Shown: one piece after another, positions 8,218-64,000 of the stretch
Layout: the number at the start of each line of letters is the position of its first letter
Numbering within the stretch: the stretch's first letter is position 1
Assembly (NCBI GenBank): GCA_964016885.1
Contig: OZ024743.1
Coordinates: forward strand, 305,970,001 to 306,034,000
DNA from: Eledone cirrhosa
Taxonomy: Eukaryota
Direction of reading: 5' to 3'
Length of the DNA: 64,000 bases
Translations under genes and position numbers: made by a program
Notes under the pieces: model-generated
What the model was told of the DNA's origin: nothing
The model's input: only the letters and a program-made list of their open reading frames with translations
The model's database searches: none

Positions 8218-9317
8218 GTAATAATAATAAAATTGAAGACTAAAATCCAAAGAGGGCTCGATAAGGAAAATATATATCAAATATATAAGAACCGTAGAGC
8301 AAATATTTATTAAAATAACAGATTAAAGTTTAAGCAAAGAATCGCTGCTTTCACCCTTAACGGGATCTTCTGAAAATAACAAAGTCAATCTGTAAACGCA
8401 GAACTGGATATTTCAAAAAACGTTGCAACCGGAGGAAGACAGGAAGACGATACTTTGGTTCGTGGTAACGTTCGCTGGCAAAGAACGGGAAAAAACGAAT
8501 AATACGTCATTAATAGGAGCGGTGAAAAACAATTACGCGCAAAGACAAAACCACGTTTATGGTATAAAAGAGGTCGTAGACTAATGTTCTCTTAGGTGGT
8601 GCATAGAGACGTTCTCTGGCAATGAACGAAAAAACGAAGATAATAAGTCATATGTGGAGCGTGGAGAACAATAGCACGCAAAAACAAAACCACGTAAATG
8701 GTATAGCAGAAATCGTAGACTAAAATTCTAACTAGGAGACCAAATGAATCTCCGCTACAGAGTTAAGAACAAAGTAAATAAATACAATACAGAAGTAATA
8801 GAAACAAATAAATACATACATGCAAACAGATACGTACATACACAAGCATACGCAAAACCTTACCATGGGTATACAAAACTACGCACATATAAATATGTGT
8901 GTGTCTGTATGCTTGTGTACAAATAAATAAATAATTATATAAACGTATATAAGTAAATAAATACGTATATAACAAGCGCACACGCATACCTACATATAAA
9001 TACACGAATGTTCGGAGACGTAAGTCAACTAAAACAAGAAGTACACATATACACACACCCACCATACGTACGAACTTGCACACTCACGCGGACGCAAAAC
9101 TCCCGTATACACATAGCCAAACCCTAAATACCAGAATATGTAAAAATTATACGCTATAACAGTCATATATACGTACGAGAAGGTATACATACCTTCACAA
9201 AACATACGGGTAATATATACTTACCTATGCAAATAAGTAAAGGAATAAACAAAACATATACTTAGCTCCCACATCAAGACGTAAAATATCCACGTATAGA
9301 TCGTGCTATCCGTTAGA

Positions 9318-15761: not shown

Positions 15762-18745
15762 GACTCATACGGAGTATCAAATTTCGGAATAGGAGCAATT
15801 CCTTCCATCAGGACCTGAAGAATAGAATTCGTTCTATTAAACATTATAATGCTGTGCACGTCCATTCCGACAAAACTGGCAATCTATATCAAGTGGAGCG
15901 CAGTACTTACCATCAACTGCTACATAATGCTGTAACTAAAGATTACCGTAAAACTAATCGGAGCGTCATTAATGAAATCAACGATGCTGGGTTTAAAACC
16001 ACCGCTGATCTCAATGTCCTGGACCGGACTGAACCTCTGGACCCTTTTTCTCCCCACTTTACCCTGAACGATCACAAATCCAATTTTCTGAACAACCCCC
16101 TCTATTCGGCTCATTAACCCTACGAAGTCCGATTTGGGTAGACTTAGTAAAAGGATTATTGATAGAATTATACCTGAAATTAGAAGTGTGGCCCCTCTTG
16201 CACTGTGGAAGAATTCTTTCGGAGTGATTGATTGGTTCAACGGCATATGCAACAAGGAATATTGCCGTTTTATCCAATTCGACATCAATAATTACTACTC
16301 CACCATCACTTTACCACTTCTCCTTAGAGCTATCAATTTCACTAAAACACTCACAATGGTTAAGGATTTCGAAGTTGATGTCATCCTCAATGCCCGTAAG
16401 TCAGATTGATTTCGACGACTCTATTTGGATTTAAAAAATCTAATAGTACCCCATTCGATGTGAGTATGAGCGCCAGCGATCTGCGGAGGTTACTGATCTT
16501 ATCGGCCTTTTCCTTCTTTTCTCTAGCAAGGAAGAATTCCCCAACGTTGGCGGTGGTTTATACCGTGATGATGGTCTTTTGACCATTGACTAAGTGTGGC
16601 CCACGTGCTTGCGACAGGTTCACAAAAGAACTCACAGCCTTCTTTAAAGGCTTCAACCTCTCCATACAGGTTGAGGCCAACCTCTCGGTCGTTAATTATC
16701 TCAAGGTTACCCTCAATTTATCGAATGGCTTGCATTACCCGTATAGAAAGCCGAATGATACGCTTAATTACATAAGTAAGCATTCTAACCATCCTGCCAG
16801 CATAACCAAGAAGCTGGTAAGAAACGTTTCTTTGAGGCTTTCCCGTCTATCTACTAATGAGCATATTTTCAACGACCATTCCACATATTACAATGAAGCT
16901 CTTTCTCGGAGTGGATTTGTCGATAAGGTAGCATATACAGAGTACGACAATAGACCTAGAAGAAATAGATCCCGACGCATTATATGGTATAACCCACCAT
17001 ATAATATGGAGGTGGCCACACCATTAGCTAAGAACTGTCTCTCCCTTATTATGAAGCATTTTCCCCCTACACATAAATATAGTAAAATTTTTAATAGAAA
17101 TGCTATTAATATTTCTTACTCTACGACTCTAAATCTTGCACATAAAATCACAGCTTCAAATTTAGCTAAACTACTGAGCCGTAGGAACACGTGCAACCCT
17201 GTAATTAGTACTAACTGTAATTGTAGGAATCAGGTTGAGTGCCCCCTATCCGGGAATGCCTCTCTAGTAACATTGTCTACAAATGTAAGGTTGAAACACC
17301 CACGTCCCGTATGTCCTACATAGGGTTAACCGCCAATAGATTCAAGCAGCGTCTTTACATGCATACCCATTCTTTTCGTAACCCTTTAAGAAGGAATTTG
17401 ACGTCACTTTCAGCTTATATCTGGAGTCTAAAAGACAACCACACCCAATATAAGTTACACTGGGAGATCCTAGCTAGGGGCTAGATCTTATAACAGAAAT
17501 AAAAGACCATGTGACCTCTGCGCCGCTGAGGCCCTGGAAATACTCTACGCCAAAGACCACATCTTAAACAAAAGATCTGAGGCAATTTCGGCTTGTATAC
17601 ATAAATTGCACAAAACTTTCTTGTATTACAGCCCCACATTATACCCTAACGGATAGTACGAACTATACGTGGATATTTTATGTCTTGATGTGGTAGCTAA
17701 GTATGTTTTATGTTTATACCATTACTCTTTTGTATAGGTAAGTATTTATTACCTGTATGTTTTGTGAAGCTACGTATACTTTCTCGTATGTATATTTGAT
17801 TGTATATGTTATGGCTTATATATTATATATTCTGGTACATATGCTTTTGGTTATGTGTATACGTGAGTTTTGCGTCTGTGTGAGTATGCGGGTTCGTACG
17901 TATGTAGGGTGTGTGTATATGTGTACTTTGTGTTTTTGTTGACGTACGTCTCCGAACATATGTATATTTACATGTTATATACGTATTTATTTATTTATAT
18001 ATGTTTATTTAATTATATGTATACACGCACACACACACACACATATATATATATATTTTTTATATATATTTTTATGTGTATTTGGTGTATACATTCGTAT
18101 GCGTGCGGGTACAGGCGTTGCGTGGGTTCTGTATGTGCGTGGGTTTTTTTTTCTGTGTACGAGCGTGTATTTGTCTACCTATGACGAGTGTCTTCGCGTA
18201 TGATTGTGTATGTCCGTATATGGATGCGTATATGTATTTATTTTATTTCAATTACCTCTGTATTTTATTTACTTTATTTTTAACTCTGAAGCCGAGAATC
18301 ATTCGGTTTCCAAGTTAGAATTTTAGTCTGCGACTTGAGTTATACCATTTACGTGGTTTTGTCTTTGTGTGCAATTGTTCTCCACGCTCCACTTATGATG
18401 TATTATCTTTGTTTTTTCCGTTCATTGCCAGAGAACGTCTCTATGAACCAACTAATAGAATATTAGTCTACGACTTCATTTATACCATAAACGTGGTTTT
18501 GTCTTTGCGTGTAATTGTTTTTTACTGCTCCAAATAATGCTGTATTATATTCGTTTTTTCCCGTTCGTTGCCAGGGAACGTTTCCACGAACCGAAGTATC
18601 GTCTTCCTGCTTTCCTCCAGTTGCAATGTTTTTTGAAATATTTACTTCAGCGTTCACAGATTGACTTTGTTAGTTTCAGAAGATCCCGTTAAGGGTGAAA
18701 GCAGCAGTTCTTTGCTTAAACTTTAATCTGTTATTTTAATAAATA
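15762..18745 (+). mobile_element. Second, 5'-truncated copy of the PLE 3 family
   Basis: ORF fragments 15854-17484 are nearly identical to 9318-11200. The 3' UTR matches 8303-9300 and ends in the CAGAAGA HHR plus (TA)n. Confidence 0.92.
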
Positions 18746-19271: not shown

Positions 19272-21467
19272 TTAATTGTAAGTTGTGATGTTGCTGTTCC
19301 ACTCATATTTTCTGTTTAATTTTGGTTGTAATTCTTTTATGTTTATTGCCTCTGTGATTTGTCTAAACATTGCGTCTTTTCTGTGTGTAGATTCTATTTT
19401 TATTTCTATGTTCTCTAATTTACCCTTGTGTCCTATTTTAGCATGTTGGTAGAGTACAGATGATTCTTTACTATCTTGAAGGTCTCGCCAGTGTTCATTT
19501 ATCCGTTCCCCTACACTACGAGCTGTCTCACCTATGTACACTATATTTTTGTCTCTACATTGTCCTTCAGTACATATTATGCTATATACTACATTTCTAG
19601 TTTTACAGTTAATATGGGGGCTTAATTTACAGGTTATACATTTCTTATCTATACAGGGGAGTCTTTGAAAAGGGTATGTCTTGCTAATAAGTGTTTTTAC
19701 GGAGGTACCTGGTCTTTCTACTATCTTAATATTGAGTTTATGTTTATCTAGGGCCCTTCTAAATTTGTAAGCTAATTCACCTCTAGGGGTTGTATCGATG
19801 AACATTACACTCTGGTATTTATTGCTATCATACCATGAGTTTATTCTATTAGCCTTGTTCCTAGTTCTTTCTATTCTATTCCAAAATTTTCTCCTATACA
19901 AGGGGCAGGTCCCATTTGTGTCATTATTTACCATTTTTTCCCATTTGGTCCTGGCTCTTCTATACACTCTGATTTTATCTCTCTGATTGTAACCAGAGAA
20001 CTGCATACGGTGGATGAAGTGTTGCATGTGTCTCTCTAGTTCTTCGGGGTTGCACATGCGGGACACGTTTCTCATCACCCGTACCAAATCCGCAATCAGT
20101 ATGTTGATTTTGGTATGGTCCGAAACAGCTGAGTTTCGGTGGATCAGATATTTGGAAGTCATGGGTTTGGCATAATGGGAATGGAGGATTTGTTTTTTGT
20201 TATTAATGGTATCTAACCAGAGCTCTGTGTCTAGTACAGGTAATCGATGGTTGGGGTGTTTACTTGGGTAGTCTATAGTAACTCTAATACTCTGGTGGAT
20301 GGAGTTAGCTATTTGATGGATGCTTTCCATTGTGTTTTTCTCTAATTCCTGACTGTTCTCTAGTGGGGGTGTTTTCACAACGATGTTTATATCATCAACG
20401 TAGCGGGAGTACATTATCAGGGTTAAGGGGTCTTCTAATTGTTCTTTAAGTTTAAGTTTAAGTCTACTGTCCCACCATACCATGAATAAGTTAGCTATGT
20501 CGCCTGCAATGCTAACACCAATGGCTGCTCCTTCCTCTTGGGCATATGTTTTTCCATTAAATTTGAACATATGTTCCATAAGGGTTAATTTTATGCTGGC
20601 CCCCACCGCATGTGCAATCATTTTCTTCAGTTCATCGTGGTTTTCGGGTGTCCGTATGGCTCTGGTCCACCCGTTCCATCTATCTGTGTGGGTTTTCTTG
20701 GCCATTGAGGTAATGGTAGGTGGTCTGCCTCTTGCTGGTCTTGTAGGGCACAGGTTGCTAAGGTCATATGTGTCTAGGTAATTATTACTATAGGTAAGTT
20801 TAAGTAGGAGTCCCAGCTGACTGGTATTAATCCCACGGAACTCAACATTGCTCTCACTGATCATTTCTACGCATTTCTCCACAGCAAAATCCACGTCAAT
20901 AGATGGATACAGGGACACAACATCCATACTACCTATTATGCAGTTTGTTAGGTCCCTAGATCGGTTACTCTCGCCGATTCTGCTGAGGAGGTCCTCCGTG
21001 CTGTCACATACATCTGGGGACAGTTCAATGATGGGGCGTATGATCAGGGAGAGGAAGTAGGACAGTCTGTAGTTACTAGCAATGTTAGCTCCACAGACTG
21101 GCCGTGTTGGTGGTCCCGTGACAGGGTCACTGCCCGTTTTACGGCCTTATCGAAGCCCATACAACGCCGGCACGTCATTGTTCCAGGCCTGGAAGTTGTT
21201 GGCAGTCCTTTTGTTGGGCTGCATTATATTCGTCCACATCACCATATGGGCATTGAGGGCTTTTTCTCTATCCTCATGCTCCTGTGGTGTTACTTCTCTT
21301 GTGTTAGTGATGTGGGGTTGCATTGCCTGGATGTAGTTTGGCAGGCTGTCAACCGACATTCTGCCAGACTTGTCTGTTGGAAAGCATGCTATCTCTCCAT
21401 TTCGCGAGCGCTGCATGAGCTTAAGCAAGCCATTTGCAGATTTTTCTCCCAGCTGCTGGGCCTCCAT
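19272..21467 (-). pseudogene. PLE RT + GIY-YIG: 551-aa open segment plus in-frame upstream part with one stop at 21147; 5'-truncated
   Basis: PTDKSG, MDVVSLYPSI, GAAIGVSIAGDIANLFM, YSRYVDD, PCIDKKCITC..CKTRNVVYSIIC..YIGETARS. Confidence 0.92.
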
Positions 21468-25710: not shown

Positions 25711-28700
25711 TCTACCATACCTTTAACACATACACACCCACCACCTTCATCCTTTATCCAGATCACTTTTTAACTATATACCCTTATCCAGATCTCATCA
25801 CAAACACTCACTCTCTACCACAACTTTTACACCCTTTTCTCCCTTACCTGTTCATATATAATGTTTATATTATTTGATCTCAGTTTTACTCCACCTTGTC
25901 CTTACTCAATTCACAGAACAGAAGGGAGGATATACCTTCTATTGGAGTGGTAGAGCAGAGGGTTGTAGGAGAGGGGAAGGGGTCGCATTTGCAGTCAGGA
26001 ATGGAATCGTCTCAAAGCTGGAAAATCTTCCTTGTGGATTCAATGACCGGATAATGTCCATGAGAGTCCCTCTGATTCAAAACCGCTTTGTGACATTGGT
26101 GAGTGTGCATGCTTTTATTATGTCTGCTAGTGATGATGAAAAACTAAGTTTCTACATGTCTTTGAGAGAGGTCGTCCATGGTATACCTTATGCAGACAAG
26201 ATTGTCATCCTTGGTGATTTTAATGCACGTGTTGGTAATGACTGGGAAGCTTGGAGTGTGATGGGCAGGCATGGAGTAGGTAAGTGCAATAACAATGGCC
26301 TACTTCTGTTGCAGATGTGCACTGAGATGGATCTTGTTGTTGGGAACACGCTTTTCAGCAGAAAGACAAATATAAGACAACTTGGATGCATCCAGATTCC
26401 AAGAAGTAGCACCTTATTGACTTCGTTTTAACGAGAAAACGTGATATCAGGGATATCACATTGGTTCGTGTTTTGCGAGCGCGAACTGTTGGACTGATCA
26501 TCATCTGGTGCGCGTCAAGTTTCAATTTGTTGTGAAGCCCAAAGTAAGGGGGAAGAAGGTTGCACTTCCAAAACAACTAAACGTGGCTCGTCTGAAAACA
26601 GAGAAAGTCAGGGCTGAGCTGTGGAGGTCCCTTGAGTCCATGGAATGTGAAAACACTTGGGAATCATTGAAGAAAACCGTCTATGATGTTAATGCTGGAG
26701 TTTTGGGTCATACCAATAGAAATCACAAAGACTGGTTCGATGAAAATGATCCAGTGATCGAGACCTTGCTTGAAGAGAAACAAAATGTGCTGGCATCATT
26801 GTTGTATGAGACACGTTCTGACAGGAGTGACCGGACCTTCAGGCAAATCAAGGCACGTATGCAACATCGATTGAGAGCCATGCAGAATACCTGGTGGAGC
26901 CAAAAGGCTGATGAAATCCATAAGGCCTCAGATAGACATGATACAAAGCTCCTATACAGTCTGCTCGGGGAGGTGTATGGTCCGACCGGTTCACAAATAT
27001 CACCACTTCGCTCCGGGGACGGCAAGGAATTGCTCAGAGATCAGAAGGAAATCCTGATCAGGTGGCATGACCACTTTGATGAGCTTCTCAACAGACCATC
27101 AGAAATTGATGATGAGTTCATCCGGTCGATTCCATCCAGACCTACAAAGCTGGCAATGGCTGATCCTCCTTCATTTGATGAGGTGGCGAAGGCCATTGCC
27201 AAATTAAACAGCGCAAGTCACCTGGAATGGATGGACTGAGTGTCGAGATTTTCAAGTGTGCTGGTGATAACTTCTTAAACCGCCTCACTGATCTCTTTGT
27301 GAATGTTTGGAATGAAGAAGATGTGCCACAGGATTGGAAAGATGCACTGATGGTGGTACTTTACAAAGGAAAGGGAGCCAAAGATGACTGTGGCAACTAC
27401 AGAGGTATTTCATTGCTATCTGTGGCTGGGAAGATCTTGTGCAGGATATTGTTGGACAGATTGATACAGCACATTGCTGTTGGGGTACTTCCTGAGTCCC
27501 AATGTGGCTTTAGGAATGGCAGAGGCACTGTTGACATGATCGTCTCGGCCAAACAACTTCAAGAGAAATGCATTGAGTAACGCATGGACTTATACCAATT
27601 TTTGTCGATCTGACCAAGGCATTTGACATCGTTAATCGGAAGGCTTTGTGGGTTATTTTAGAGAGATTGGGCTGTCCTGAAAAGTTTGTGAACATTCTGA
27701 AACTCTTCCACGATGACATGCAGGCATGGGTGAATGTTGGAGGTAAAATGTCTGAGCTAATCTCGGTTGACAATGGTGTCAAGCAGGGTGATATACCTGC
27801 ACCAACTTTGTTTGCCTTGTATTTCGCGATGGTGTTCTTCATGGCCTTCGAGGATTGTCAACACGGTAACTATCTCAGATATTGCACTTCCGGCAAGCTG
27901 TTTAACCTTAGGCGTCTCACTGCCAACACTAAGGTACTGAGTACCTTGATCAGAGAATTTTTATATGCAGATGATTGTGATCTCTTTGCATACTCCCAGA
28001 GTGACATGCAACACCTTATGGATTCTTTTTCTAATGCGTGCAGTGCTTTGGGACTGACAATCAGTCTGAAGAAGACTGTCGTCATGTACCAACCTGCTCC
28101 GGATAAAGTTTTCAATGAACCCTCCATACACGTATACGGTCAAAAGCTGAAGGCTGCTGACACATTTGTGTATTTGGGGAGTACTCTGAGTGTGACCTGC
28201 TCTCTGGATGCAGAAGTTGGTCTACGTGTTAGTAAGGCAAGTGAGTCATTTGGAAAGCTAAACTACCGTCTTTGGTGCAGGCGAGGAATCACAATGAGGA
28301 CCAAGGTGAGAGTGTATGATGTATGTTTACTGTCAGCTTTGCTGTATGCATGTGAGACATGGGTTGCCTACAAACGGCATATCCACAGACTGGAACGGTT
28401 TCGCCAGCAGTGTCTCAGAAAGATGCTTGGTATCAAGTGGCAGATGCATGTGAGTGATGTTGAGGTCCTTGAGAGAAGTGAGTGCCGGAGCATTGAGAGT
28501 ATTATCCACCAACGGCGTTTGCGATGGACCGGACACCTCTGCAGAATGGAGGATGATCGAATCCCAAAACAACTCTTGTATGACGAGCTTTGTGAGGGTA
28601 AGAGACATCACAAACCAAAGCTCCGATTCAAGGAGTGAGTAAAGGACTCATTGAAAAAAAATGGTTTTATGATGGCTGACTGGGAGATAGAAGCTCTTGA

Positions 28701-34425: not shown

Positions 34426-34486
34426 TTCATTCTGACGACTGAAAATAGGCATAACATCTGCCTTCAAGAAACCACTGGTAAATGAA
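34426..34486 (+). ncRNA. Type I HHR of the downstream pLTR; upstream twin 29646-29705 has CTGGCGA
   Basis: ttcatt CTGACGA ..aggca/tgcct.. GAAA ccactgg TA aatgaa. Confidence 0.82.
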
Positions 34487-34519
34487 ATAATTATCTTATG
34501 TTGTATATTACATAACTAA

Positions 34520-36874: not shown

Positions 36875-36877
<3 letters not shown>

Positions 36878-39245
36878 AATGAATAATAACAGGTAGACAT
36901 CATAAAAAGGTAATTTATTCCGTGTGCTTACAAGTGTTTCCACGGTGGTACTGCAGCCTAGTTCCGCTACGTGCAAATTCACAAGTACTTGCAGAACTCG
37001 AATATCCAATGCTGTGACCACTGTTTCCTCAGAGCAGAATGGTAAATGTACAATGTAAAAACCCTTAAGTGGGTTGTTGGGGAAGATAGAGTGGAACAGG
37101 AAGAGAGAAAAGTAGGGAAGATGGAGAGAGAAGGAAAGATATGCAGGGGTTGGAGAAGTAGGAGAGAGTGGCTTGTAGATATCTTAATCAAAATGTTATG
37201 GTAGGGGTTACTTTTGGAGAGATGCGTTGATAGTTAAGGTCGGAATTATTTATTGCCCCAGAGGGCAGGTTCATAGATGTTGAGAGGGCGGTAGGTCAAA
37301 GGTGAGAGAGAGAGAGTGTAATGGATGTAGAGAGAGATATAGGTAGAGAGGGGACAGATAAAGTATGTGTGGTGAGTGAACTTTTGGTTTTGTAGTAGTA
37401 ATCTAGGAATTGTACTGAGTTACCATGTATAGTGATAAGCAGTGTATTGTCTTGTAGTGTGGGGGGAAGAGAAGGTTGTTAGCTAGAAAGTGGTGTTATA
37501 GTTACGGGTTCGAATGTTAAGTTATTTTATAGTGAGAGAATTTAGCTTTTAGTTTGTGGTTGCAGTATAACGATCGTTCAATTCTATCGTTAAGTAGTTT
37601 GTTTTTGGATTTTAATATGTAAAATAGCTCAAGGTTACATAACCTGCAGTACTTCAATCCACTCCGATATGCACTTGCGCTGGAAAGTATATCCCATTTT
37701 AAGGTGAACTGTTGGTTGTGTTCACGGAGTTGCCAGGTCTTGTTGGCGAGCGTGGTCACAAAACGGTGATTCGGATGTTTGATTGAGAATCGATGACGGT
37801 ACCAGCGAGATTTAAACGATGTGGTGGTAGATCCGATATAATACCATTTCTGGTCGTTCGATTCAACCGTGCATTGGTAAACAATGTTGAACTTTAAGCA
37901 TTCATTCTGCAATGGACATCTTTCAGGTAGATGGCAGTTACATTCTTTGTTGTGGGTAGCGGGTACACCATGGATAGGTTGTGATAGCGGTACAGGTGGG
38001 TTGTGCAATACCCGTCTCCCATTTAGTGGTTGGGAGGCAGATATTGCGTTCTGCCCATCTGTTCCTAAAATGTTTTGTTTTGTAGAGTTGTTTAATTGCC
38101 TTAAGTTAAGTTTTTTTATGTATGCTTCAAGGTTTGGTGCCGTGGAGTATGATAATCTAATAGTTTTAGAGTTCAGAATTTTGCTGTACTTATGGGAACT
38201 AGGGAAGTGTTTATTGATTAATTTAAAGAATGAAAGAGATAGTTTTGTACTAATCGAGGCATTAAAAATAGGATTGTACCAGATATACTTTCTACAACGT
38301 GATTTATTTGGTGGTGATCTTCTATTATTAGTATGTCTGGTAGTACTGTGTGTGTGTGCTTGTGTTTTAGTCCCCCGGTTACGTATACCTTGGTTACGTG
38401 TAGAGCTATGTGTGCTGTGGAAATTCCTATCGATGTATTCTATTGTATCCCGGTGGTCAGCATTCCTTAATGCATTATTGTAGTATTCAGCATGTTCACT
38501 AAAAATATCAGAGTTAGACGATAGGCGAGAGATTCTAAGAGAAATACTCCGGGGAACTGATTTGATCATGGAGAGTGGGTGGTTAGAGTTAAAGTTAATA
38601 TACGTAAGGTTCTCATTTACCTTGTGGAAGGGTCGTATCTGTCCGGTATTTAAATTAAGAGTTACGTCCAGAAAGTTTACTACTTTAAGATTGTATTCGT
38701 ATGTTATTTTTAGACCCAGTTCACTAAAAGATTTTCTAATATTTTTCCGTAGCCTTTCAAGATTTTGGTTATTCAAGTTATTAACTAATAAGAGCCCGTC
38801 ATCTCTGTATATCCCCCCCCCCCTGTAGATTACTAAATTTACTATGTAATATGTGGGCTATGGAAATTCCCACGAGATCCGTGACCTCCGCCGAGTCGTT
38901 GGAACCCATGGTAATATCGAAATTTGTGGGTCTGTCCTTACGTTCCCAGTAGCAGTTATCGAACTTAATAATGGTTTTTCTAGCCTCGAGAATAATATTA
39001 ATTTCGTCCTCCGTTAGGTCGGAATTGACCTTAGCAAACGATAGGGCCTTACGTAAAGTGCTTGGTGAGATGGAAGAGTAGTATTCGTCTATGTCAAATT
39101 GTATAAACTTAGATTTATTCTTATTCTTAACATTATTAAACCAGCGAATTGCTTCGCTAGTGTTGCCCCATAATTTAATTTCAATTTTCTTTTTCACTTG
39201 AGTTATTACTCTGTCAAGTATATGTTTGCTAATTTTCCCTATATA
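36875..39245 (-). mobile_element. 5'-truncated Hydra-clade-like PLE, related to 23460-25710
   Basis: ORFs 38799-39245 and 37517-38776: FIQFDIDEYYSSI, MGSNDSAEVTDLVG, CNCHLPERCPLQNEC, YIGSTT, CRLC..CNH; frameshift in a C run at about 38815. Confidence 0.92.
36925..37036 (-). ncRNA. HHR with 85-nt branched stem II
   Basis: tgct CTGAGGA [acagtggt/accaccgt, cagc/gctg, agttctgc/gcggaact] GAAA cacttg TA agca. Confidence 0.7.
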
Positions 39246-39444: not shown

Positions 39445-40230
39445 TGTATATTTATTAAAATAACATATTAAAGTTTAAGCAAAGAATCGCTGCTTTCACC
39501 CTTAACGAGATCTTCTGAAACTAACAAAGTCAATCTGTAAACGCAGAACTGGATATTTCAAAAAACGTTGCAACCGGAGGAAGACAGGAAGACGATACTT
39601 TGGTTCGTGGTAACGTTCGCTGGCAAAGAACCGGAAAAAACGAATAATACGTCATTAATAGAAGCGGTGTAAAACAATTACGCGCAAACACAGAACCACG
39701 TTTATGGTATAAAAGAGGTCGTAGACTAATGTTCTCTTAGGTGGTGCATAGAGACGTTCTCTGGCAATGAAAGAAAAAACGAAGATAATACGTCAATGTG
39801 GAGCGTGGAGAACAATAGCACGCAAAGCAAAACCACGTAAATGGTATAGCAGAAGTCGTAGACTAAAATTCTAACTAGGAGACCAAATGAATCTCCGCTA
39901 CAGAGTTAAAAACAAAGTAAATAAATACAATACAGAAGTAATAATGTATATATATATATATATAATTGTTTCGACTTTTGGCACAAGGCCAGCAATTACC
40001 CAGTACATTACTGGTACTTTATTTTATCGACCCCGTAAGGATGAAAGGCAAAGTTAACCTCGACGGGATTTGAACTCAAACCGTAAAGGGACGTAACTAT
40101 GCTAGAAAGCATGGCGTCCAACCCTCTACTGATACTGCCAATTCACCGCCCTCTATATATATATACATATATATATATATAATGTTATTATATATATATA
40201 TACACGTTATATATATATATATATAATAAC

Positions 40231-46796: not shown

Positions 46797-46913
46797 ATAT
46801 ATATATATATATTGTTATATATATATATATATATATATATAGTAATAATATAGTTTCAGAAGATCCCGTTAAGGGTGAAAGCAGCGATTCTTTGCTTAAA
46901 CTTTAATCTGTTA

Positions 46914-46997
<84 letters not shown>

Positions 46998-47002
<5 letters not shown>

Positions 47003-48784
47003 ATAAATGCTCTGAAATAGCGATATATATGTGAATATAGACATAGAATATTCGAAAATATTCTGTATGTTTATAATAAACATTTTGAAGACCTAATCGC
47101 TATAGAATAGAATACGTCACGTATTACAATTAGATTCTCGATAAAAGCAAGGGAAGTAATCTACGCGTTTCATTCTTGTTAGAAATCATCAGGACCACAT
47201 ATCCAGTGCTTTTATCGAGAATGACACAGCTAGAGACTTATAGAATACTTAGCTGTGTACAGGAACTGGTTTGAAAGAGCGGTTGCCGGTCCGGCAGAAA
47301 TTAGAAATTGGAATAAATGCTCTGAAATAGCGATATATATGTGAATATAGACATAGAATATTCGAAAATATTCTGTATGTTTATAATAAACATTTTGAAG
47401 ACCTAATCGCTATAGAATAGAATACGTCACGTATTACAATTAGATTCTCGATAAAAGCAAGGGAAGTAATCTACGCGTTTCATTCTTGTTAGAAATCATC
47501 AGGACCACATATCCAGTGCTTTTATCGAGAATGACACAGCTAGAGACTTATAGAATACTTAGCTGTGTACAGGAACTGGTTTGAAAGAGCGGTTGCCGGT
47601 CCGGCAGAAATTAGAAATTGGAATAAATGCTCTGAAATAGCGATATATATGTGAATATAGACATAGAATATTCGAAAATAGCACTGGATATGTGGTCCTG
47701 ATGATTTCTAACAAGAATGAAACGCGTAGATTACTTCCCTTGCTTTTATCGAGAATCTAATTGTAATACGTGACGTATTCTATTCTATAGCGATTAGGTC
47801 TTCAAAATGTTTATTATAAACATACAGAATATTTTCGAATATTCTATGTCTATATTCACATATATATCGCTATTTCAGAGCATTTATTCCAATTTCTAAT
47901 TTCTGCCGGACCGGCAACCGCTCTTTCAAACCAGTTCCTGTACACAGCTAAGTATTCTATAAGTCTCTAGCTGTGTCATTCTCGATAAAAGCACTGGATA
48001 TGTGGTCCTGATGATTTCTAACAAGAATGAAACGCGTAGATTACTTCCCTTGCTTTTATCGAGAATCTAATTGTAATACGTGACGTATTCTATTCTATAG
48101 CGATTAGGTCTTCAAAATGTTTATTATAAACATACAGAATATTTTCGAATATTCTATGTCTATATTCACATATATATCGCTATTTCAGAGCATTTATTCC
48201 AATTTCTAATTTCTGCCGGACCGGCAACCGCTCTTTCAAACCAGTTCCTGTACACAGCTAAGTATTCTATAAGTCTCTAGCTGTGTCATTCTCGATAAAA
48301 GCACTGGATATGTGGTCCTGATGATTTCTAACAAGAATGAAACGCGTAGATTACTTCCCTTGCTTTTATCGAGAATCTAATTGTAATACGTGACGTATTC
48401 TATTCTATAGCGATTAGGTCTTCAAAATGTTTATTATAAACATACAGAATATTTTCGAATATTCTATGTCTATATTCACATATATATCGCTATTTCAGAG
48501 CATTTATTCCAATTTCTAATTTCTGCCGGACCGGCAACCGCTCTTTCAAACCAGTTCCTGTACACAGCTAAGTATTCTATAAGTCTCTAGCTGTGTCATT
48601 CTCGATAAAAGCACTGGATATGTGGTCCTGATGATTTCTAACAAGAATGAAACGCGTAGATTACTTCCCTTGCTTTTATCGAGAATCTAATTGTAATACG
48701 TGACGTATTCTATTCTATAGCGATTAGGTCTTCAAAATGTTTATTATAAACATACAGAATATTTTCGAATATTCTATGTCTATA

Positions 48785-48788
<4 letters not shown>
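46998..48788. mobile_element. Candidate non-LTR retrozyme array: 310-bp HHR-containing units, about 2.2 units (-) then about 3.6 units (+)
   Basis: Period 310 (gaataaatgc at 47001, 47311, 47621; gcactggata at 47681, 47991, 48301, 48611). Inversion at 47680/47681, no ORF, (TA)n flanks. Confidence 0.88.
47692..47734 (+). ncRNA. Minimal type I HHR of the 310-bp unit; also 48002-48044, 48312-48354, 48622-48664 (+) and 47156-47198, 47466-47508 (-)
   Basis: gtggtc CTGATGA t-ttct-aaca-agaa-t GAAA cgcg TA gattac; predicted GUA cleavage after 47728. Confidence 0.9.
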
Positions 48789-48826
<38 letters not shown>

Positions 48827-48891
48827 ATGTATATATATATATATATGAAAAAGAACACAAGAGCGTCTACAACATCAACAGATTTTTATTG

Positions 48892-50168: not shown

Positions 50169-51065
50169 CTAGCAGTAAAGCCCGGCGTTGCTCGGAGCTA
50201 CTCAGTAGCTGTGTTAAAGTTACAATGTTAAGTTCCTTTCTTGGCTTAAAAATTGTAGAGTCTACAGTATAGACTTTCATCTGGTACTTTCGATTAATAT
50301 TCCCTCAACCAACAGTATGCCTTATGAAGTTAAGAAAACATAACCATAACTCGAATGTTAAAACAAAAGAGGATGCTGGGGATAAAAACTGCATTGGTAA
50401 TCTATTAACAAAAATCGAAATTGTAAACACTGCAACACTTGTCTCAGAGAAAAACATCAGCATAACCAAAGTATCAGTTATTTTGGATGGACATGAAAAA
50501 CAAACAAAAAATGCAATTTTATCGCCTATCACCTCCCTGCACGACTGGCTGTCTGCACAACTTTATCGCCTATATCACCTCTCTGCACGACTGTCTGTCT
50601 GCATGCCTCCATCATCTATCAGCCCGACTGTCTGTCTGCACAACTTTATCGCCTATATCACCTTTCTGGACGACTGTCTGTCTGCACATCTTTATCGCCT
50701 ATAGCAGTAAAGCCCGGCGTTGCTCGGGGCTGCTCAGTAGCTGTGTTAAAGTTACAATGTTAAGTTCCTTTCCCATTTATCTGTAGAACAAACGTAGCCC
50801 ATGTGTCAAGTTTTGTGAAAATCGGTTGCGAACTCCAGAAGTTCTGATGGTTTGTTGCATTGCACTGCAGTGCTTCAGTCGACTCCAAGGAAGTGGTAAA
50901 TGGGGGTTCTCTGCCGGAAGGCCCTATAATCAATATCGGGAAAAATGAAAGTACCCATGACCCTCTGGGGTACATAAGTAACCTAAGTCTTAAGTTTGGT
51001 GAAAATACTGTAGAAATGCATAAGGTTTACACACAACACATTTTCGTTTACAATTTTATTTACAT
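50169..51065 (-). mobile_element. Non-autonomous Helitron-like element with duplicated 3' end
   Basis: Minus strand GC hairpin (ccgagcaacgccggg), then CTAG|T at 50169. A second copy of this terminus lies at 50701-50772, and an internal minisatellite of about 45 bp at 50517-50702. Confidence 0.7.
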
Positions 51066-53285
51066 CATTCTTAAACTCCACCTCCCAACAACACTCAATA
51101 ATGAACATACCCTACTAGTAACCTTTGATGTCATCAATTTATATTCCAATATCCCGCACAACCTAGGTATAGAGGCAATATAATTCTGGCTTGAAAATTT
51201 CCCTAGTAAACTCCCAGGGCGCATCCCCAAAGAATTTGTGTTGGAGGGACTCAAATTCATCTTGGAAAACAATTTCTTCGAATTCAATGCCAAATACTAC
51301 AGACAGAAATCTGGGACTGCCATGGGCACGAAAGTAGCCTCCCCATACGCCAACCTTGTCATAGGATATTTGGAAACCACTCTCTGCCGCAAAGTTCTAG
51401 ACAAATACGGCAACCACTCTACCAACACATAGAAAAGAACTGGAAGAGATATCTGGACGACTCTTTCATCCTCTGGCATGAAAGTATAGATAGACTGGTA
51501 GAGTTTAAAACCCTTCTGAATGGACTCTATACAAACTTACAATTCACAATGGATTACAGCCATAAACAACTCCCTTTCCTCATCAAGAAAACAAACAACA
51601 AAATAGAAACAGACATATACTACAAACCCACAGACTCCAAACAATACTTTCCATTCAACTCGTGCCACCCTAGACACACCAAAATGGCAATTCCTTATAA
51701 CCTAGCCAGAAAGATCTGCGCAATAGTTTCAGATAAATACACATGCTACACACGACTAGAAGAATTAAAAAACACACTTATCAGCAGAAACTACCCACAA
51801 TCCCTATTCAACAATGGATTCCAACGTACACTAACTAAAACTCAACATCCAGGAACTCAGACACCCCAAACTCAGGAATGAACCGCAACAGAAAACTCTA
51901 CCATACATCTCCACACACAACCCCCTCAACAATGAGGCATTCGACACCATCCTCCAGAACATTCCTTTACTAAAAAGAGACCCAAGAATCAACAAAATTC
52001 TCCAAAGACACAACATCATAAAGAGCAAAAGACAACCTAAATCCATAAAAAACATCCTCACACAAGCCAAAATCCAACAAACCCTCACAATGAACCCTAC
52101 AGTAACAAAATGCGGAAGGCCCAACTGTGGTATATGCATAAATCTAATAGAAGGTTCAACATTCCATTTTAAACAAGGACATTTCACAGTTAAACACAAC
52201 TTTACATGTGCATCTGAAAACCTAATCTATGTTTTGACCTGCTCAGGTTGTCAAGAGCACTATATAGGACAGACAAAAAACAGCCTCCGACAACGTATAA
52301 CCGTCCATAAATCACAAATCAAAATACAGGAATACAGAAAGATTGCATTTAGTGAACATATCGCCAATTGTCCACCCAACTAACATCCAAACTTTAAAAT
52401 TTTTCCCATTTACAAATTCATAGAAAACGCTACTTTCATCCATCGTACCAACAAGGAAACACATTTCATTAACAAATTCCAACCTCTACTTATTGCACTA
52501 AACTTCGGACTAAACTAAAACTGGAACAAACAATCAAACATTTACAAATACCTATGTCTCTCTAAAGAGTCACCTCCCTAACACCCTACCTAATACTTTT
52601 TCTTAAATAAATTAAATATCATCCACCATGAATTACCTCCCCCTGCATATTAACTCTTTCAAAGGGGAAATAGTATCAAACCCCAGTCCACCATTTGCCT
52701 CCATCATGGATCAACTAAGCACCCTTGCTATATTAACACATTTTGATCTGCTTAACTTCAAGAACTATGCCTCTAAATAACATTATTTTTCCTTTCACAT
52801 TGACTTTTTATGCTCCACATTATGCCCCTTTTTTTCTTTTTTCTTTTTTCTTTTTTCTTTTTTCTTTTTTCTTTTTTCTTTTTTCTTTTTTCTTTTTTCT
52901 TTTTTCTTTTTTCTTTTCACTTCATAAACCTTGTTTGTAAATAACATTATTCCTTCTGCACCATTTCTTTAACATGTCCAACACCACCATTCTACACCAT
53001 ATACATATCACTATCATTTGATAATGCATAAAAATGTTGAAACCGGTAATAGACAATTATTAAATATATAAATAAATAAATAAATGTCATTGTTAATTAA
53101 TAAATAAATCAACTAATACCTTAACACTTCACACAAAGTAAAATATTTCGTTTTAATCATTTTCCAACCCAGAAAAAAAAGAGAAAGAAATAATAAGGGA
53201 AAAAAAAATATTTTTCTTCCTAATAATCGTCTTTTTCTCCCTGTTTTCATATATATATATTCTAACTCGTGTGCTTCCCCTCCAT
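51066..53285 (+). mobile_element. Neptune-like PLE, 5'-truncated and decayed (coding about 51066-52515)
   Basis: TFDVINLYSNIPH, GTAMGTKVASPYANL, WKRYLDD, YYKPTDS, SCHPRH, CGRPNCGIC, FTCASENLIYVLTCSGCQEHYIGQT. Confidence 0.9.
53011..53052 (+). ncRNA. Probable U3:A8 HHR in the Neptune-like pLTR
   Basis: ctatcat TTGATAA t-gcat-aaaa-atgt-t GAAA ccgg TA atag; stem I is imperfect. Confidence 0.5.
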
Positions 53286-57688: not shown

Positions 57689-57839
57689 ATAAAATATTAG
57701 CAAAAAAGAAATTCCGTAAAGTGGTTGGTTGTCCATGTATTTGATAAGGGTTGGATGAATGAAAACAGTTTGAAAATATGACTGAAACACAAGAGGCAGA
57801 TCAAAGAAGGTTACCAATAATTAAAGGTGGATAAGGGTA

Positions 57840-60800
57840 CTGTCAGAATGTATAGTATATCAACTAGCTTACAATTCATATTAAGTGTAGCTGATGTTAC
57901 TGTTTTAATGTATGGTAGATCTACTATCTTAATATTGTTGTTAAGAGTAGCTGATGGTAGTGTGAGAATGTAAGGTAGATCTACCACCTTACTATTGGTA
58001 TTAAAGGTAGCTGATGGTAGTGTGATATGTATGGTAGATCTACCACCTTACCATTGGTATTAAGGTTAGCTGATGGTAATGTGATAATGTAAGGTAGATC
58101 TACCACCTTACCATTGGTATTAAGGTTAGCTGATGGTAGTGTGATATGTATGGTAGATCTACCACCTTACCATTGGTATTAAAGGTAGCTGATGGTAATG
58201 TGAGAATGTATGGTAGATCTACCTCCTTACAATTGGTATTAAAGGTAGCTGATGGTAGTGTGAGAATGTATGGTAGATCTCCCACCTTACTATTGGTATT
58301 AAGGGTAGCTGATGGTAGTGTGATATGTATGGTATATCTACCACCTTACCATTGGTATTAAAGGTAGCTGATGGTATTGTGAGAATATATGGTAGATCTA
58401 CCACCTTACCATTGGTATTAAAGATAGCTGATGGTAATGTGAGAATGTATGGTAGATCTCCCACCTTACCATTGGTATTAAGGGTAGCTGGTGGTAGTGT
58501 GATATGTATTGTAGATCTACCACCTTACCAATGGTATTAAGATTAGCTGATGGTAATGTGAGAATGTATGGTAGATATGCCACCTTACCATTGGTATTCA
58601 GGTTAGCTGATGGTAGTGTGATATGTATGGTAGATCTACCACCTTACCATTGGTATTAAGGTTAGCTGATGGTAATGTGAGAATGTATGGTAGATATGCC
58701 ACCTTAACATTGGTATTCAGGTTAGCTGATGGTAGTGTGATATGTATGGTAGATCTACAACCTTATCATTGGTATTAAGATTAGCTGAGGGTAATGTGAG
58801 AATGTATGGTAGATCTACCACCTTACCATTGGTATTAAAGGTAGCTGATGGTAGTGTGATATGTATGGTAGATCTACACATTTACCATTGGTATTAAGAA
58901 TAGCTGATGGTAATGTGAGAATGTATGGTAGATATGCCACCTTACCATTGGTATTAAGGGTAGCTGATGGTAGTGTGATATGTATGGTAGATCTACCACC
59001 TTATCATTGGTATTGAGGTTAGCTGATGGTAATGTGAGAATGTATGGTAGATCTCCCACCTTACCATTGGTATTAAGGGTAGCTGATGGTAATGTGCGAA
59101 TGTATGGTAGATCTCCCACCTTACCATTGGTATTAAAGGTAGCTGATGGTAGTGTGAGAATGTATGGTAGATCTCCCACCTTACCATTGATATTAAGGTT
59201 AGCTAATGGTAGTGTGATATGTATGGAAGATCTCCCACCTTACCATTGGTATTAAGGGTAGCTGATAGTAATGTGATATGTATGGTAGATCTACCACCTT
59301 ACCATTGGTATTAAGGGTAGCTGATGGTAATGTGAGAATGTATGGTAGATCTACCACCTTACCATTGGTATTAAAGGTAGCTGATGGTAGTGTGAGAATT
59401 TATGGTAGATCTACCACCTTACCATTGGTATTAAGGTTAGCTAATGGTAATGTGAGAATGTATGGTAGATCTCTCACCTTACCATTAGTATTAAGGGTAG
59501 CTGATGGTATTGTCATATGTATGGTAGATATACCACCATACCATTGGTATTAAGGTTAGCTGAGGGTAATAGGAGAATGTATGGTAGATCTCCCACCTTA
59601 CCATTGGTATTAAGGGTAGCTGATGGTAATGTGAGAATATATGGTAGATCTACCACCTTACCATTGGTATTAAAGGTAGCTGATGGTAATGTGAGAATGT
59701 ATGGTAGATCTACCACCTTACTATTGGTATTAAGGGTAGCTGATGTTAGTGTGATATGTATGGTATATCTACCACCTTACCAATGGTATTAAGATTAGCT
59801 GATGGTAATGTGAGAATGTATGGTAGATATGCCACCTTACCATTGGTATTCAGGTTAGCTGATGGTAGTGTGATATGTATGGTAGATCTACCACCTTACC
59901 ATTGGTATTAAGGTTAGATGATGGTAATGTGAGAATGTATGGTAGATCTACCACCTTACCATTGGTATTAAAGGTAGCTGATGGTAGTGTGATATGCATG
60001 GTAGATCTACCACCTTACCATTGGTATTAAAATTAGCTGATGGTAATATGAGAATGAATGGTAGATATGCCACCTTACCATTGGAATTGAGGTTAGCTGA
60101 GGGTAATGTGAGAATGTATGGTAGATCTCCCAACTTATCATTGGTATTAAGGGTAGCTGATGGTAGTGTGATAATTATGGTAGATCTACCAACTTATCAT
60201 TGGTATTAAGGTTAGCTGATGGTAATGTGAGAATGTATGGTAGATCTCCCACCTTATCATTGGTATTAAGGTTAGCTGATGGTAATGTGAGAATGTATGG
60301 TAGATCTACCACCTTACCATTGGTATTAAAGGTAGCGGATGGTAGTGTGATATGTATGGTAGATCTACCAACTTACCATTGGTATTAAGATTAGCTGATG
60401 GTAATGTGAGAATGTATGGTAGATATGCCACCTTACCATTGGTATTAAGGGTAGTTGATGGTAGTGTGATAATTATGGTAGATCTACCAACTTATCATTG
60501 GTATTAAGGTTAGCTGATGGTAATGTGAGAATGTATGGTAGATCTCCCACCTTATCATTGGTATTAAGGTTAGCTGATGGTAATGTGAGAATGTATGGTA
60601 GATCTACCACCTTATCATTGGTATTAAGGTTAGCTGATGGTAATGTGAGAATGTATGGTAGATCTACCACCTTATCATTGGTATTAAGGTTAGCTGATGG
60701 TAATGTGAGAATGTATGGTAGATCTCCCACCTTACCATTGGTATTAAGGGTAGTTGATGCTAGTGTGATATGTACGGTAGATCTACCACCTTACCATTGG

Positions 60801-63800
60801 TATTAAGGGTAGCTGATGGTAATGTGAGAATGTATGGTAGATCTCCCACCTTACCATTGGTATTAAGGGTAGTTGATGGTAGTGTGATATGTATGGTAGA
60901 TCTACCACCTTACCAATGGTATTAAGATTAGCTGATGGTAATGTGAGAATGTATGGTAGATATGCCACCTTACCATTGGTATTCAGGTTAGCTGATGGTA
61001 GTGTGATATGTATGGTATATCTACCACCTTACCAGTGGTATTAAGGGTAGCTGATGGTAATGTGAGAATGTATGGTAGATCTACCACCTTACCATTGGTA
61101 TTAAAGGTAGCTGATGGTAGTGTGATATGTATGGTAGATCTACCAACTTACCATTGGTATTAAGGTTAGATGATGGTAATGTGAGAATGTATGGTAGCTC
61201 TACCACCTTACCATTGGTATTAAAGGTAGCTGATGGTAGTGTGATATGCATGGTAGATCTACCACCTTACCATTGGTATTAAAATTAGCTGATGGTAATG
61301 TGAGAATGTATGGTAGATATGCCACCTTACCATTGGAATTCAGGTTAGCTGATGGTAATGTGAGAATGTATGGTAGATCTCCCACCTTACCATTGGTATT
61401 AAGGGTAGCTGATGGTAATGTGAGAATGTATGGTAGATCTACCACCTTACCATTGTTATTAAGGTTAGCTGATGGTAGTGTGATAGGTATAGTAGATCTA
61501 CCACCTTACCATTGGTATTAAGATTATCTGATGGTAATGTCATAATGTATGGTAGATATGCCACCTTACCATTGGTATTAAGGGTAGTTGATGGTAGTGT
61601 GATAATTATGGTAGATCTACCAACTTATCATTGGTATTAAGGTTAGCTGATGGTAATGTGAGAATGTATGGTAGATCTCCCACCTTATCATTGGTATTAA
61701 GGTTAGCTGATGGTAATGTGAGAATGTATGGTAGATCTCCCACCTTATCATTGGTATTAAGGTTAGCTGATGGTAATGTGAGAATGTATGGTAGATCTAC
61801 CACCTTATCATTGGTATTAAGGTTAGCTGATGGTAATGTGAGAAAGTATGGTAGATCTCCCACCTTACCATTGGTATTAAGGGTAGTTGGTGCTAGTGTG
61901 ATATGCATGGTAGATATGCCACCTTACCATTGGTATTAAGGGTAGCTGATGGTAATGTGAGAATGTATGGTAGATCTCCCAACTTACCATTGGTATTAAG
62001 AGTAGTTGATGGTAGTGTGATATGTATGGTAGATCTACCACCTTACCATTGGTATTAAGGGTAGCTAATGGTAAAGTGAGAATGTATGGTAGATCTCCCA
62101 CCTTACCATTGGTATTAAGGGTAGTTGATGGTAGTGTGATATGTATGGAAGATATGCCACCTTACCATTGGTATTAAGGGTAGCTGATGGTAATGTGACA
62201 ATGTATGGTAGATATGCCACCTTACCCTTGGTATTAAGGGTAGCTGATGGTAGTGTGATATGTATGGTAGATCTACCCCCTTATCATTGGTATTGAGGTT
62301 AGCTGATGGTAATGTGAGAATGTATGGTAGATCTCCCACCTTACCATTTGTATTAAGGGTAGCTGATGGTAATGTGAGAATGTATGGTAGATCTCCCACC
62401 TTACCATTGGTATTAAAGGTATCTGATGGTAGTGTGAGAATGTGTGGTAGATCTCCCATCTTACCATTGATATTAAGGTTAGCTAATTGTAGTGTGATAT
62501 GTATGGAAGATCTCCCACCTTACCATTGGTATTAAGGGTAGCTGATGGTAATGTGATATGTATGGTACATCTCCTAACTTACCATTGGTATTAGGGGTAG
62601 CTAATGGTATTGTGAGAATGTATGGTAGATCTACCACCTTACCATTGGTATTAAAGGTAGCTGATGGTAATGTATGGTAGATCTACCACCTTACCATTGG
62701 TATTAAAGGTAGCTGATGGTATTGTGAGAATATATGGTAGATCTACCACCTTACCATTGGTATTAAAGATAGCTGATGGTAATGTGAGAATGTATGGTAG
62801 ATCTCCCAGCTTACCATTGGTATTAAGGGTAGCTGGTGGTAGTGTGATATGTATTGTAGATCTACCACCTTACCAATGGTATTAAGATTAGCTGATGGTA
62901 ATGTGAGAATGTATGGTAGATATGCCACCTTACCATTGCTATTCAGGTTAGCTGATGGTAGTGTGATATGTATGGTAGTTCTACCACCTTACCATTGCTA
63001 TTAAGGGTAGCTGATGGTAATGTGAGAATGTATGGTAGATCTACAACCTTACCATTGGTATTAAAGGTAGCTGATGGTAGTGTGATATGTATGGTAGATC
63101 TACCACCTTATCATTGGTATTAAGATTAGCTGATGGTAATGTGAGAATGTATGGTAGATCTACCACCTTGCCATTTGTATTAAAGGTAGCTGATGTTAGT
63201 GTGATATGTATGGTAGATCTACCAACTTACCATTGGTATTAAACGTAGCTGATGGTAGTGTGATATGCGTGGTAGATATACCACCTTACCATTGGTATTA
63301 AAATTAGCTGATGGTGATGTGAGAATGTATGGTAGATATGCCACCTTACCATTGGAATTCAGGTTCGCTGATGGTAATGTGAGAATGTATGGTAGATCTA
63401 CCACCTTACCATTGGTATTAAAGGTAGCTGATGGTAGTGTGATATGTATGGTAGATCTACCAACTTACCATTGGTATTAAGGTTAGCTGATGGTAATGTG
63501 AGAATGTAAGGTAGATCTACCACCTTATCATTGGTATTAAGGTTAGCTGATGGTAATGTGAGAATGTATGGTAGATCTACCACCTTATCATTGGTATTAA
63601 GGTTAGCTGATGGTAATGTGAGAATGTATGGTAGATCTCCCAACTTACCATTTGTATTAAGGGTAGTTGATGCTAGTGTGATATGTATGGTAGATCTACC
63701 ACCTTACCATTGGTATTAAGGGTAGCTGATGGTAATGTGAGAATGTATGGTAGATCTCCCACCTTACCATTGGTATTAAGGGTAGTTGATGGTAGTGTGA

Positions 63801-64000
63801 TATGTATGGTAGATCTACCACCTTACCAATGGTATTAAGATTAGCTGATGGTAATGTGAGAATGTATGGTAGATATGCCACCTTACCATTGGTATTCAGG
63901 TTAGCTGATGGTAGTGTGATATGTATGGTAGCTCTACCACCTTACCATTGGTATTAAGGGTAGCTGATGGTAATGTGAGAATGTATGGTAGATCTAACAC
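57840..64000. repeat. 59/60-bp tandem satellite, runs off the window end
   Basis: Consensus gtatggtagatctaccaccttaccattggtattaagggtagctgatggtaatgtgagaat, with 59-bp agtgtgatat variants; degenerate left edge. Confidence 0.97.

Follow-up and report, generated by a model that had tools for sequence, protein, structure and literature searches.

A Very Young Hammerhead Retrozyme Family in Eledone cirrhosa That Bears the Insertion Signature of Penelope-like Elements

Introduction

The metazoan non-LTR retrozymes described in coral, mussel and axolotl (PMC7229834, as far as its text is available) are non-coding tandem units of about 300 nt with a low GC content. Each unit includes one canonical type I hammerhead ribozyme (HHR), the families reach thousands of copies, and they coexist with Penelope-like elements (PLEs). 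Their expression was demonstrated, as was circularization by a host ligase in the case of the axolotl and mussel retrozymes. A route through RNA circles was proposed in PMC4209133 and PMC7229834 (available sections), and the spread of retrozymes by way of PLE-copied circles, proposed since 2014–2020, was based on coexistence and on pLTR similarity. In the available account of Xenopus, 24 of 57 retrozyme families have a match to a known element, usually the end of a PLE.

The insertions of EN+ PLEs (Penelope/Poseidon, Neptune and Naiad; available parts of PMC8557442, PMC11167929 and PMC3846280) include an inverted 5′-truncated copy, a tail of 30–40 bp at one end, partial tandems, joins at microhomologies and a hammerhead upstream of the start sites. 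They are found at microsatellite targets, with a bias toward (TA)n (PMC8557442). In experiments with a purified PLE, which is predicted to act as a dimer, both strands were cut and extended, and synthesis began at two internal positions of the RNA that delimit the tail (PMC11167929). The origin of the tandem and inverted structures of PLEs was called undefined in the available text of PMC8557442, which also describes Chlamys PLEs such as MRC1 that are non-coding, multicopy in head-to-tail arrangement and moved by PLEs.

The family analyzed here is represented by one insertion in the window, a 64,000-nt stretch of Eledone cirrhosa DNA. Like the metazoan retrozymes, it is a non-coding tandem repeat with a low GC content that is present in thousands of copies alongside PLEs, and every unit has a single canonical type I hammerhead. 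The available text of PMC7229834 reports tandem copies with no mention of "inverted", whereas the 310-nt family is nearly always head-to-head with fixed ends, and the available part of a vertebrate survey (10.64898/2026.07.22.740005) describes neither inverted arms nor tails nor (TA)n targets. Unlike the matching Xenopus families, the 310-nt unit had no such match to a known element. The 310-nt family shares with EN+ PLEs the inverted 5′-truncated copy, the tail at one end, a microsatellite as target, the location of the hammerhead upstream of the start sites, and joins at microhomologies. It differs from them in having no ORF, a canonical instead of a minimal hammerhead, and, where EN+ PLEs have partial tandems, arms that reach more than 21 full units. 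The MRC1-type elements, as described in the available source, differ in that they are without canonical hammerheads, occur in green algae and have a 3′ end like that of their helpers. On every feature testable here, the family is a non-LTR retrozyme.

Results

Structure of the insertion in the window

The insertion (46997–48788) has a repeat period of 310 bp and 5.8 units in total. A first-pass annotation had noticed the period and about 5.8 identical-looking units, and the measured identity was indeed 100% within each arm, with no unit differences in the window array. The same annotation took the units for a single tandem run; instead, two runs were found back to back, one of 2.21 units on the minus and one of 3.58 units on the plus strand. 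The two arms have opposite orientations, 5′-to-5′ relative to the ribozyme strand, and lie between two (TA)n tracts, the left (46919–46998) and right (48788–48846) halves of the target site. Unit positions were numbered from the predicted cleavage site, with 47729 as position 1. The inverted arm (46997–47680, minus strand) has its outer end at unit position 165, the "B" end, and its inner end at position 102. Only its outer end has a 35-nt tail (46997–47031, minus strand; unit positions 131–165), the size of which agrees with the PLE tail in the available text of PMC8557442. The forward arm (47680–48788, plus strand) extends from an inner end at position 262 to an outer end at position 130, the "A" end. 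At the inner 5′-5′ junction (47680), positions 102 and 262 are joined with 1 nt of microhomology. The inversion, overlooked in the first-pass annotation, is the best evidence for PLE action.

Four hammerheads were located on the plus strand, at 47692–47734, with predicted cleavage after GUA (47728), and further on at 48002, 48312 and 48622. The two on the minus strand, at 47156–47198 and 47466–47508, have predicted cleavage between 47162 and 47161 and between 47472 and 47471, respectively. Therefore, the arms contain three complete monomers on the plus strand and one on the minus strand. The reference monomer, the predicted circle with positions 1–310, is at 47729–48038, and the other plus-arm monomers are at 48039–48348 and 48349–48658; the minus-arm monomer is at 47162–47471. 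A monomer start at 47729 had been proposed before, and this is the first base after the predicted cleavage. Unit positions 131–200 (47859–47928, plus strand) cover the two inferred start sites of reverse transcription together with the sequence on their 3′ side.

Several other repeats were observed in the window. The end of another (TA)n-targeting repeat is found at 39456–39530 and at 46846–46918, where it adjoins the retrozyme insertion, and the same (TA)n tracts have been hit by several repeat families. Three copies of a doubled 137–140-bp repeat lie beside (TA)n (8468–8723, 18316–18592 and 39613–39866). A 60-bp satellite with more than 103 copies and 88% matches occupies 57836–64000 and continues past the window end.

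The predicted ribozyme

Each 310-bp unit contains one type I hammerhead, with at least two in consecutive units. Helix I has 6 bp (GUGGUC/GAUUAC), helix II has 4 bp (UUCU/AGAA) on a U.U base, and helix III has 2 bp with a palindromic loop (ACGCGU) before GUA; the core consists of CUGAUGA and then GAAA. A comparable motif never occurred in 2000 dinucleotide-shuffled versions of the unit. According to the available text of PMC4209133, the minimal hammerhead has no helix III, while the canonical metazoan type I form has it and works as a dimer. By these definitions the predicted ribozyme of the window is of the canonical metazoan type I form, and the traits of the minimal form (no helix III, long helix II) were not found in the unit. 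The first-pass annotation had called it a minimal type I hammerhead; type I, the CUGAUGA/GAAA/GUA elements and the palindrome stand, but "minimal" does not, as helix III is present. A U.U at the base of helix II also occurs in HHR_Amex2, an axolotl retrozyme hammerhead that cleaves (PMC7229834, available part).

An Rfam scan of the window returned no hammerhead family at E ≤ 1 and only two (TA)n artefacts. Antisense ribozymes were not found in the unit, the minus-strand matches being those of the inverted arm. The circular fold of the unit had an energy of −67.4 kcal/mol (z −4.3 vs 60 shuffles). The lowest-energy local fold misplaced the ribozyme core (−12.1 vs −3.9 kcal/mol for the monomeric active helices). 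In the available reports, in vitro cleavage failed for 8 of 9 dimers of Xenopus retrozymes (10.64898/2026.07.22.740005), and hammerhead cleavage was dispensable for PLE insertion in vitro (PMC11167929). The unit has a GC content of about 33% and no LTR. The earlier observation that it has no ORF holds even around the circle, where stops occur in all frames, which rules out coding by rolling translation.

Dispersed copies and their ends

The exact ribozyme motif was found 18,746 times in the 3.0-Gb assembly, exact junctions between the tail end and (TA)n 1001 times, and the short-end pattern 1194 times, some of the latter internal; the control gave 0 in each case. From the motif count and the mean of at least 9.3 units in 60 loci picked by position, the family was estimated at about 2,000 insertions and about 5.8 Mb. 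Its copies are near-identical, with 113 singleton changes per 230,632 aligned bases. The numbers and near identity of the copies bear out the first-pass description of a young family dispersed in (TA)n, and the genome-wide dispersal excludes a duplication at a single locus, the case named there as refuting. The contigs of sequencing run X1, which is independent in format but possibly from the same sample, contained the family at great depth and also the short-end/(TA)n junctions.

Contig sets of four of the six listed runs were examined for the unit. Runs X3, X5 and X6, with three other organism labels and of a kind not on record, had one 340-base contig each, cyclic in X5 and X6 and carrying the majority letter at position 276. 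Trace-level tandem DNA would look alike, and therefore these contigs are no evidence for an RNA circle or for transfer across species. The 25-base ribozyme pattern had 0 matches in metagenome and viral contigs.

The architecture was mapped in 85 insertions: 25 were selected for identity to the unit, and the other 60 are successive loci on contig C1 recognized by their tail end. In the identity-picked set, 23 of 25 were head-to-head, and all 22 loci with both ends in (TA)n paired one end at 127–139 with one at 159–172. Along contig C1, the opposite arm was at the short site in 51 of the 60 loci and at the tail site in 0; three of the others were single-armed, one was at an N gap and five extended beyond the fetched stretch. 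Thus, an inverted arm stands beside the direct copy in 51 of 55 fully seen contig C1 loci. The commonest end pairs were 130/165 and 139/165. The short site overlaps the unit's own ATATATAT (positions 132–139), and therefore the target can anneal there. The long site (159–172, mostly 165) has only 2–3 nt of AT microhomology with the target. As both flanks are (TA)n, a target-site duplication is not readable.

Arm lengths ranged from less than 1 to more than 21 units. The inner arm ends were uniform over the unit (chi-square p 0.88), and those within 5 nt of the cleavage site numbered 4 of 148 vs 5.3 expected. Copying therefore does not terminate by run-off at 5′ ends made by cleavage. The inner junctions joined unrelated unit positions through microhomology or short fillers. 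In every fully seen two-arm locus the sequence between the two ends consisted of units, with no non-unit sequence and no ORF for RT plus GIY-YIG, and this ruled out an autonomous Penelope-like element as the identity of the insertions.

Variants and the template

In the 85 loci (230,632 aligned bases), 167 variants were present in all units of all arms, 113 in a single unit and 13 in an intermediate number, and 5 were uninformative. For these counts 12 outer and 20 inner bases per arm were masked, as were 25 bases around jumps, and a variant counted as fixed with one exception if at least 5 units covered the site. Private to one locus were 17 of the fixed variants, a class that may include rare subfamilies in this sample of 85 of about 2,000 insertions. 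At least 4 units covered 15 of them, e.g., 22/22 and 21/21. There are 0.2 private fixed variants per locus, close to the 0.15 singletons per unit; this agreement is what one would see if every unit of a new array came from a single donor unit. The singletons may include assembly errors, and polishing could have leveled near-identical units.

The two arms of a locus overlapped over 58,981 bases, which held 48 unshared singletons. At today's singleton density, linear donors would lead to about 29 shared events, a value that drops if the donors were much younger when copied; in-register sharing was seen in 3 of 71 two-arm loci (arms shorter than 100 nt, i.e., the short arms of L056 and L073 and the filler in L055, are left out of the 71-locus counts). 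In these three (L044, L084 and L101), non-fixed variants are common to both arms in register, and in L101 the entire haplotype changes in both arms once two rounds have passed. A haplotype switch in one arm only was found in L075. A variant repeated in several units of one arm, in L066, L067, L088 and L110, is some local duplication. We regard the monomer circle as the probable usual template, and go no further than that because L044, L084, L101, L075 and the four arms with repeated variants oppose its pure form. A minority of the insertions, about 3 of 71, look as if they were copied from longer linear or multimeric RNA.

Singletons at the ligation site (positions 309–2) numbered 3 in 747 passes, not significantly different from the 1.5 expected. 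Two of the three types of fixed indel are one-base insertions two bases past the cleavage site, at positions 2–3 (L055, L062, L085, L094 and L112; L091 and L104), and may represent a ligation scar or a bulge in helix I.

Recurrent variants were concentrated in the ribozyme, with 10 of 14 inside the 43-nt hammerhead (p 1.5e-6). All of these fall where change is tolerated: in helix I (G.U/A-U swaps), in loop 2, at core position 7, at the U.U pair (changed to A-U) and after position 2 (two one-base insertions). The invariant core had 0 recurrent variants and 5 singletons. Position 276 is A in 53 of 85 loci, giving an A-U pair, and the window copy has the minority G. Natural variants also occur at positions 284/294, 287 and 295. 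Private variants were in the hammerhead in 0 of 17 cases vs 19 of 113 singletons, a difference that was not significant (p 0.075). The placement of the recurrent variants is an indirect indication that the ribozyme may be under selection.

Sister families and candidate helpers

Two, possibly three, older sister retrozyme families with units of 317–322 nt were identified (L110:2950–3750 and L135–L159; L129:5846–6200 and L160–L179; L053:25–179 and L166). Their copies are about 93–95% and 86–91% identical among themselves and 62–63% identical to the 310-nt unit. They have the head-to-head form and the same two ends, and in the loci fetched their arrays are shorter than those of the 310-nt family. 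One sister hammerhead has GUAC/GUAC in helix II and U3/A8 replacing C3/G8 in the core; the pairings CAC/GUG and CGC/GCG were also found among the sister hammerheads. The predicted sister hammerheads thus keep the fold with different letters, i.e., they are covarying. Core positions 3 and 8 pair in the hammerhead, according to the available text of PMC11167929. Compared with one sister unit, positions 131–200 are the best kept (80%), with 50–67% elsewhere and only 50% in the ribozyme. The U-A form at core positions 3 and 8 occurs naturally. The conservation of positions 131–200 points to them as a candidate landing pad for a PLE. A separate hammerhead repeat family was also observed, with a unit of about 484 nt, a U.U plus AGCU/AGCU in helix II and ACUAGU in helix III. 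It lies head-to-head beside an insertion of the 310-nt unit at L059:900–4300 and also occurs in L042, L050, L061, L069, L103 and L110.

The first-pass annotation had placed the insertion among its likely helper elements. This was partly supported, in that the window contains PLE fragments and that one of their families is intact elsewhere; against it, that family has no detectable sequence in common with the unit and a tail of about 146 nt. The copy in question (36875–39240, minus strand, with the PLE match at 37520–38857) is a 5′-truncated member of a family with intact 784-aa frames elsewhere, and a protein query from this family gave 86,920 first-look candidates in the assembly. By eye, the 784-aa protein has RT-type YRDD and C-terminal GIY-YIG-type motifs; the Pfam GIY-YIG match was weak in one search and absent in another. 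Arms of this family are up to 100% identical, end in (TA)n and follow the rule of one short and one long end, the ends lying 54 and 200 nt after its own hammerhead. The resulting tail of about 146 nt, vs 26–35 nt in the 310-nt family, is also far above the 30–40 bp in the available text of PMC8557442. By eye, helix II of the hammerhead in the window copy is enlarged by an insert of about 95 nt. The 784-aa PLE and the unit had no alignable similarity beyond short end motifs, namely CCTAAT or CCAAT before TA and TTCA near the short end. Neither 49 PLE 3′ regions nor a profile search of the fetched loci (well below 0.1% of the genome) revealed similarity of the unit to a helper pLTR. PLE-like tblastn matches were present in 5 of 45 sister-family loci and were not joined into a continuous element.

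A broken PLE-like fragment of a different family, with RT and GIY-YIG regions, was observed at 51060–52480 (plus strand; Pfam GIY-YIG at 51835–52383). Hammerhead-like motifs at 34432–34490 (plus), 29687 (plus) and 19067 (minus) lie downstream of RT fragments (27577–28638, plus, and 19272–21146, minus), and are probably the ends of other retroelement families.

Discussion

With high confidence, the insertion can be assigned as a very young copy of a non-coding, hammerhead-bearing non-LTR retrozyme. The inverted arm, the tail at one end, the (TA)n target and an autonomous PLE with a matching end rule make mobilization by PLEs well supported, and we consider it highly likely that a PLE moved this family. 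The first-pass annotation had suggested PLE machinery, and the inverted arm and the tail support that suggestion. How the array was written is less firm. We think it likely that a PLE acting in trans copied one predicted 310-nt circle round and round from both cut strands. A tandem arm would be transcribed, neighboring hammerheads would pair through ACGCGU and cleave after GUA to release 310-nt monomers, and a host ligase would close these into circles. The PLE protein, probably as a dimer, would then bind around positions 131–200 and nick both strands of a (TA)n site. As the footprint shows, copying starts from one target end at 159–172 (mostly 165) and from the other at 130–139 on the unit's ATATATAT, and each two-armed insertion uses one start site of each kind. 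The number of rounds by which each end is extended and the place where it halts would be random, and microhomology or short fillers would join the two cDNA ends into a head-to-head array in which all units would carry the letters of one circle.

A different template would be an uncleaved linear multimeric transcript, primed twice in its last unit, in which case there would be no circle and the hammerhead would be incidental. The in-register sharing in L044, L084 and L101 favors such a template, uncleaved RNA would likewise be in keeping with the absence of run-off at the cleavage site, and the Anolis PLE used mainly unprocessed RNA in vitro (PMC11167929, available part). However, the sharing is confined to 3 of 71 loci when about 29 events were expected, linear copying alone can neither carry a new mutation into all of 16–22 units nor outgrow the donor array, and the recurrent variants are both concentrated in the ribozyme and compatible with it. 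We consider this route unlikely. It is still less probable that short PLE-type insertions of about one unit per arm were later expanded on DNA by slippage or unequal exchange in the manner of minisatellites, a route discussed in the available part of 10.64898/2026.07.22.740005. The variants repeated along the long arms of L066, L067, L088 and L110 are what such expansion would leave, but the 113 singletons against 13 intermediates form a star pattern and not nested blocks, 78 of 103 complete arms exceed two units in a family that is very young, and the arrays of the older sister families are, in the loci fetched, shorter rather than longer.

Self-priming (PMC3846280) would explain the inversion in another way, with one arm made by reverse transcription, the other by fold-back of the cDNA, and the tail left by endonuclease resolution. 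It could account for the sharing in L044 and L101, short fold-back fillers occur at a few junctions (L040 and L055), and the arm lengths are weakly correlated (rho 0.34). Yet a fold-back copy is never longer than its template, and the short-end arm reaches further in 29 of 71 loci and the tail arm in 42; the in-register variant of L084 fits neither direction, and the junctions join unrelated unit positions rather than palindromes. This explanation is very improbable. As for an ordinary satellite or an assembly artefact with a chance hammerhead-like motif, the negative Rfam scan speaks for it, but the motif was absent from all 2000 shuffles, covarying ribozymes occur in the sister families, thousands of dispersed loci have fixed ends, and the junctions recur in the run X1 contigs. 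It can practically be dismissed.

Copying of a monomer circle by a PLE remains the preferred reading, and it invites comparison with other systems. In L1 twin priming both target ends prime on one RNA and produce an inversion with the 3′ ends outward, as in the 310-nt family. The L1 pieces are consecutive parts of the RNA, whereas here the starts are 26–35 nt apart and the arms overlap over many rounds. Hammerhead viroids and satellite RNAs are like the 310-nt unit in size and in being structured, ribozyme-processed circular RNA, which for the unit is a prediction; the family differs from them in having the ribozyme on one polarity and a genomic DNA phase. There is a small chance that the 310-nt circle is a viroid-like animal replicon, amplified and selected as RNA, members of which a PLE dimer periodically fixes in the genome. 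RNA-level selection would explain the variants piled in the ribozyme and the rare in-register errors of both arms. As part of this doubtful reading, three waves with copies about 88%, 94% and 99.9% identical would have rebuilt the ribozyme and kept the RT landing pad, and the single contigs of the unit in the three runs with other organism labels would belong to the same picture.

This kind of element is already known; what is new is the family and its PLE-type back-to-back form with two strict start sites. Also new is genomic evidence that fits rolling-circle copying of one monomer. In the literature covered, which included few subscription papers and some sources in part, we found neither a description of inverted, tailed retrozymes nor a demonstration of rolling-circle copying from insertion footprints. 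The 310-nt family bears the PLE insertion signature itself, together with a variant pattern that counts templates. The family provides a ready-made system for in vitro and population-genomic studies: the substrate measures 310 nt, both start sites have been mapped, the target is (TA)n, and some 2,000 outcomes are nearly identical. It also points to an enzyme, existing in nature, for site-directed rolling-circle copying of circular RNA. For the genome of this animal, the family has meant the addition of about 5.8 Mb of long inverted repeats in a short time, a likely source of dsRNA.
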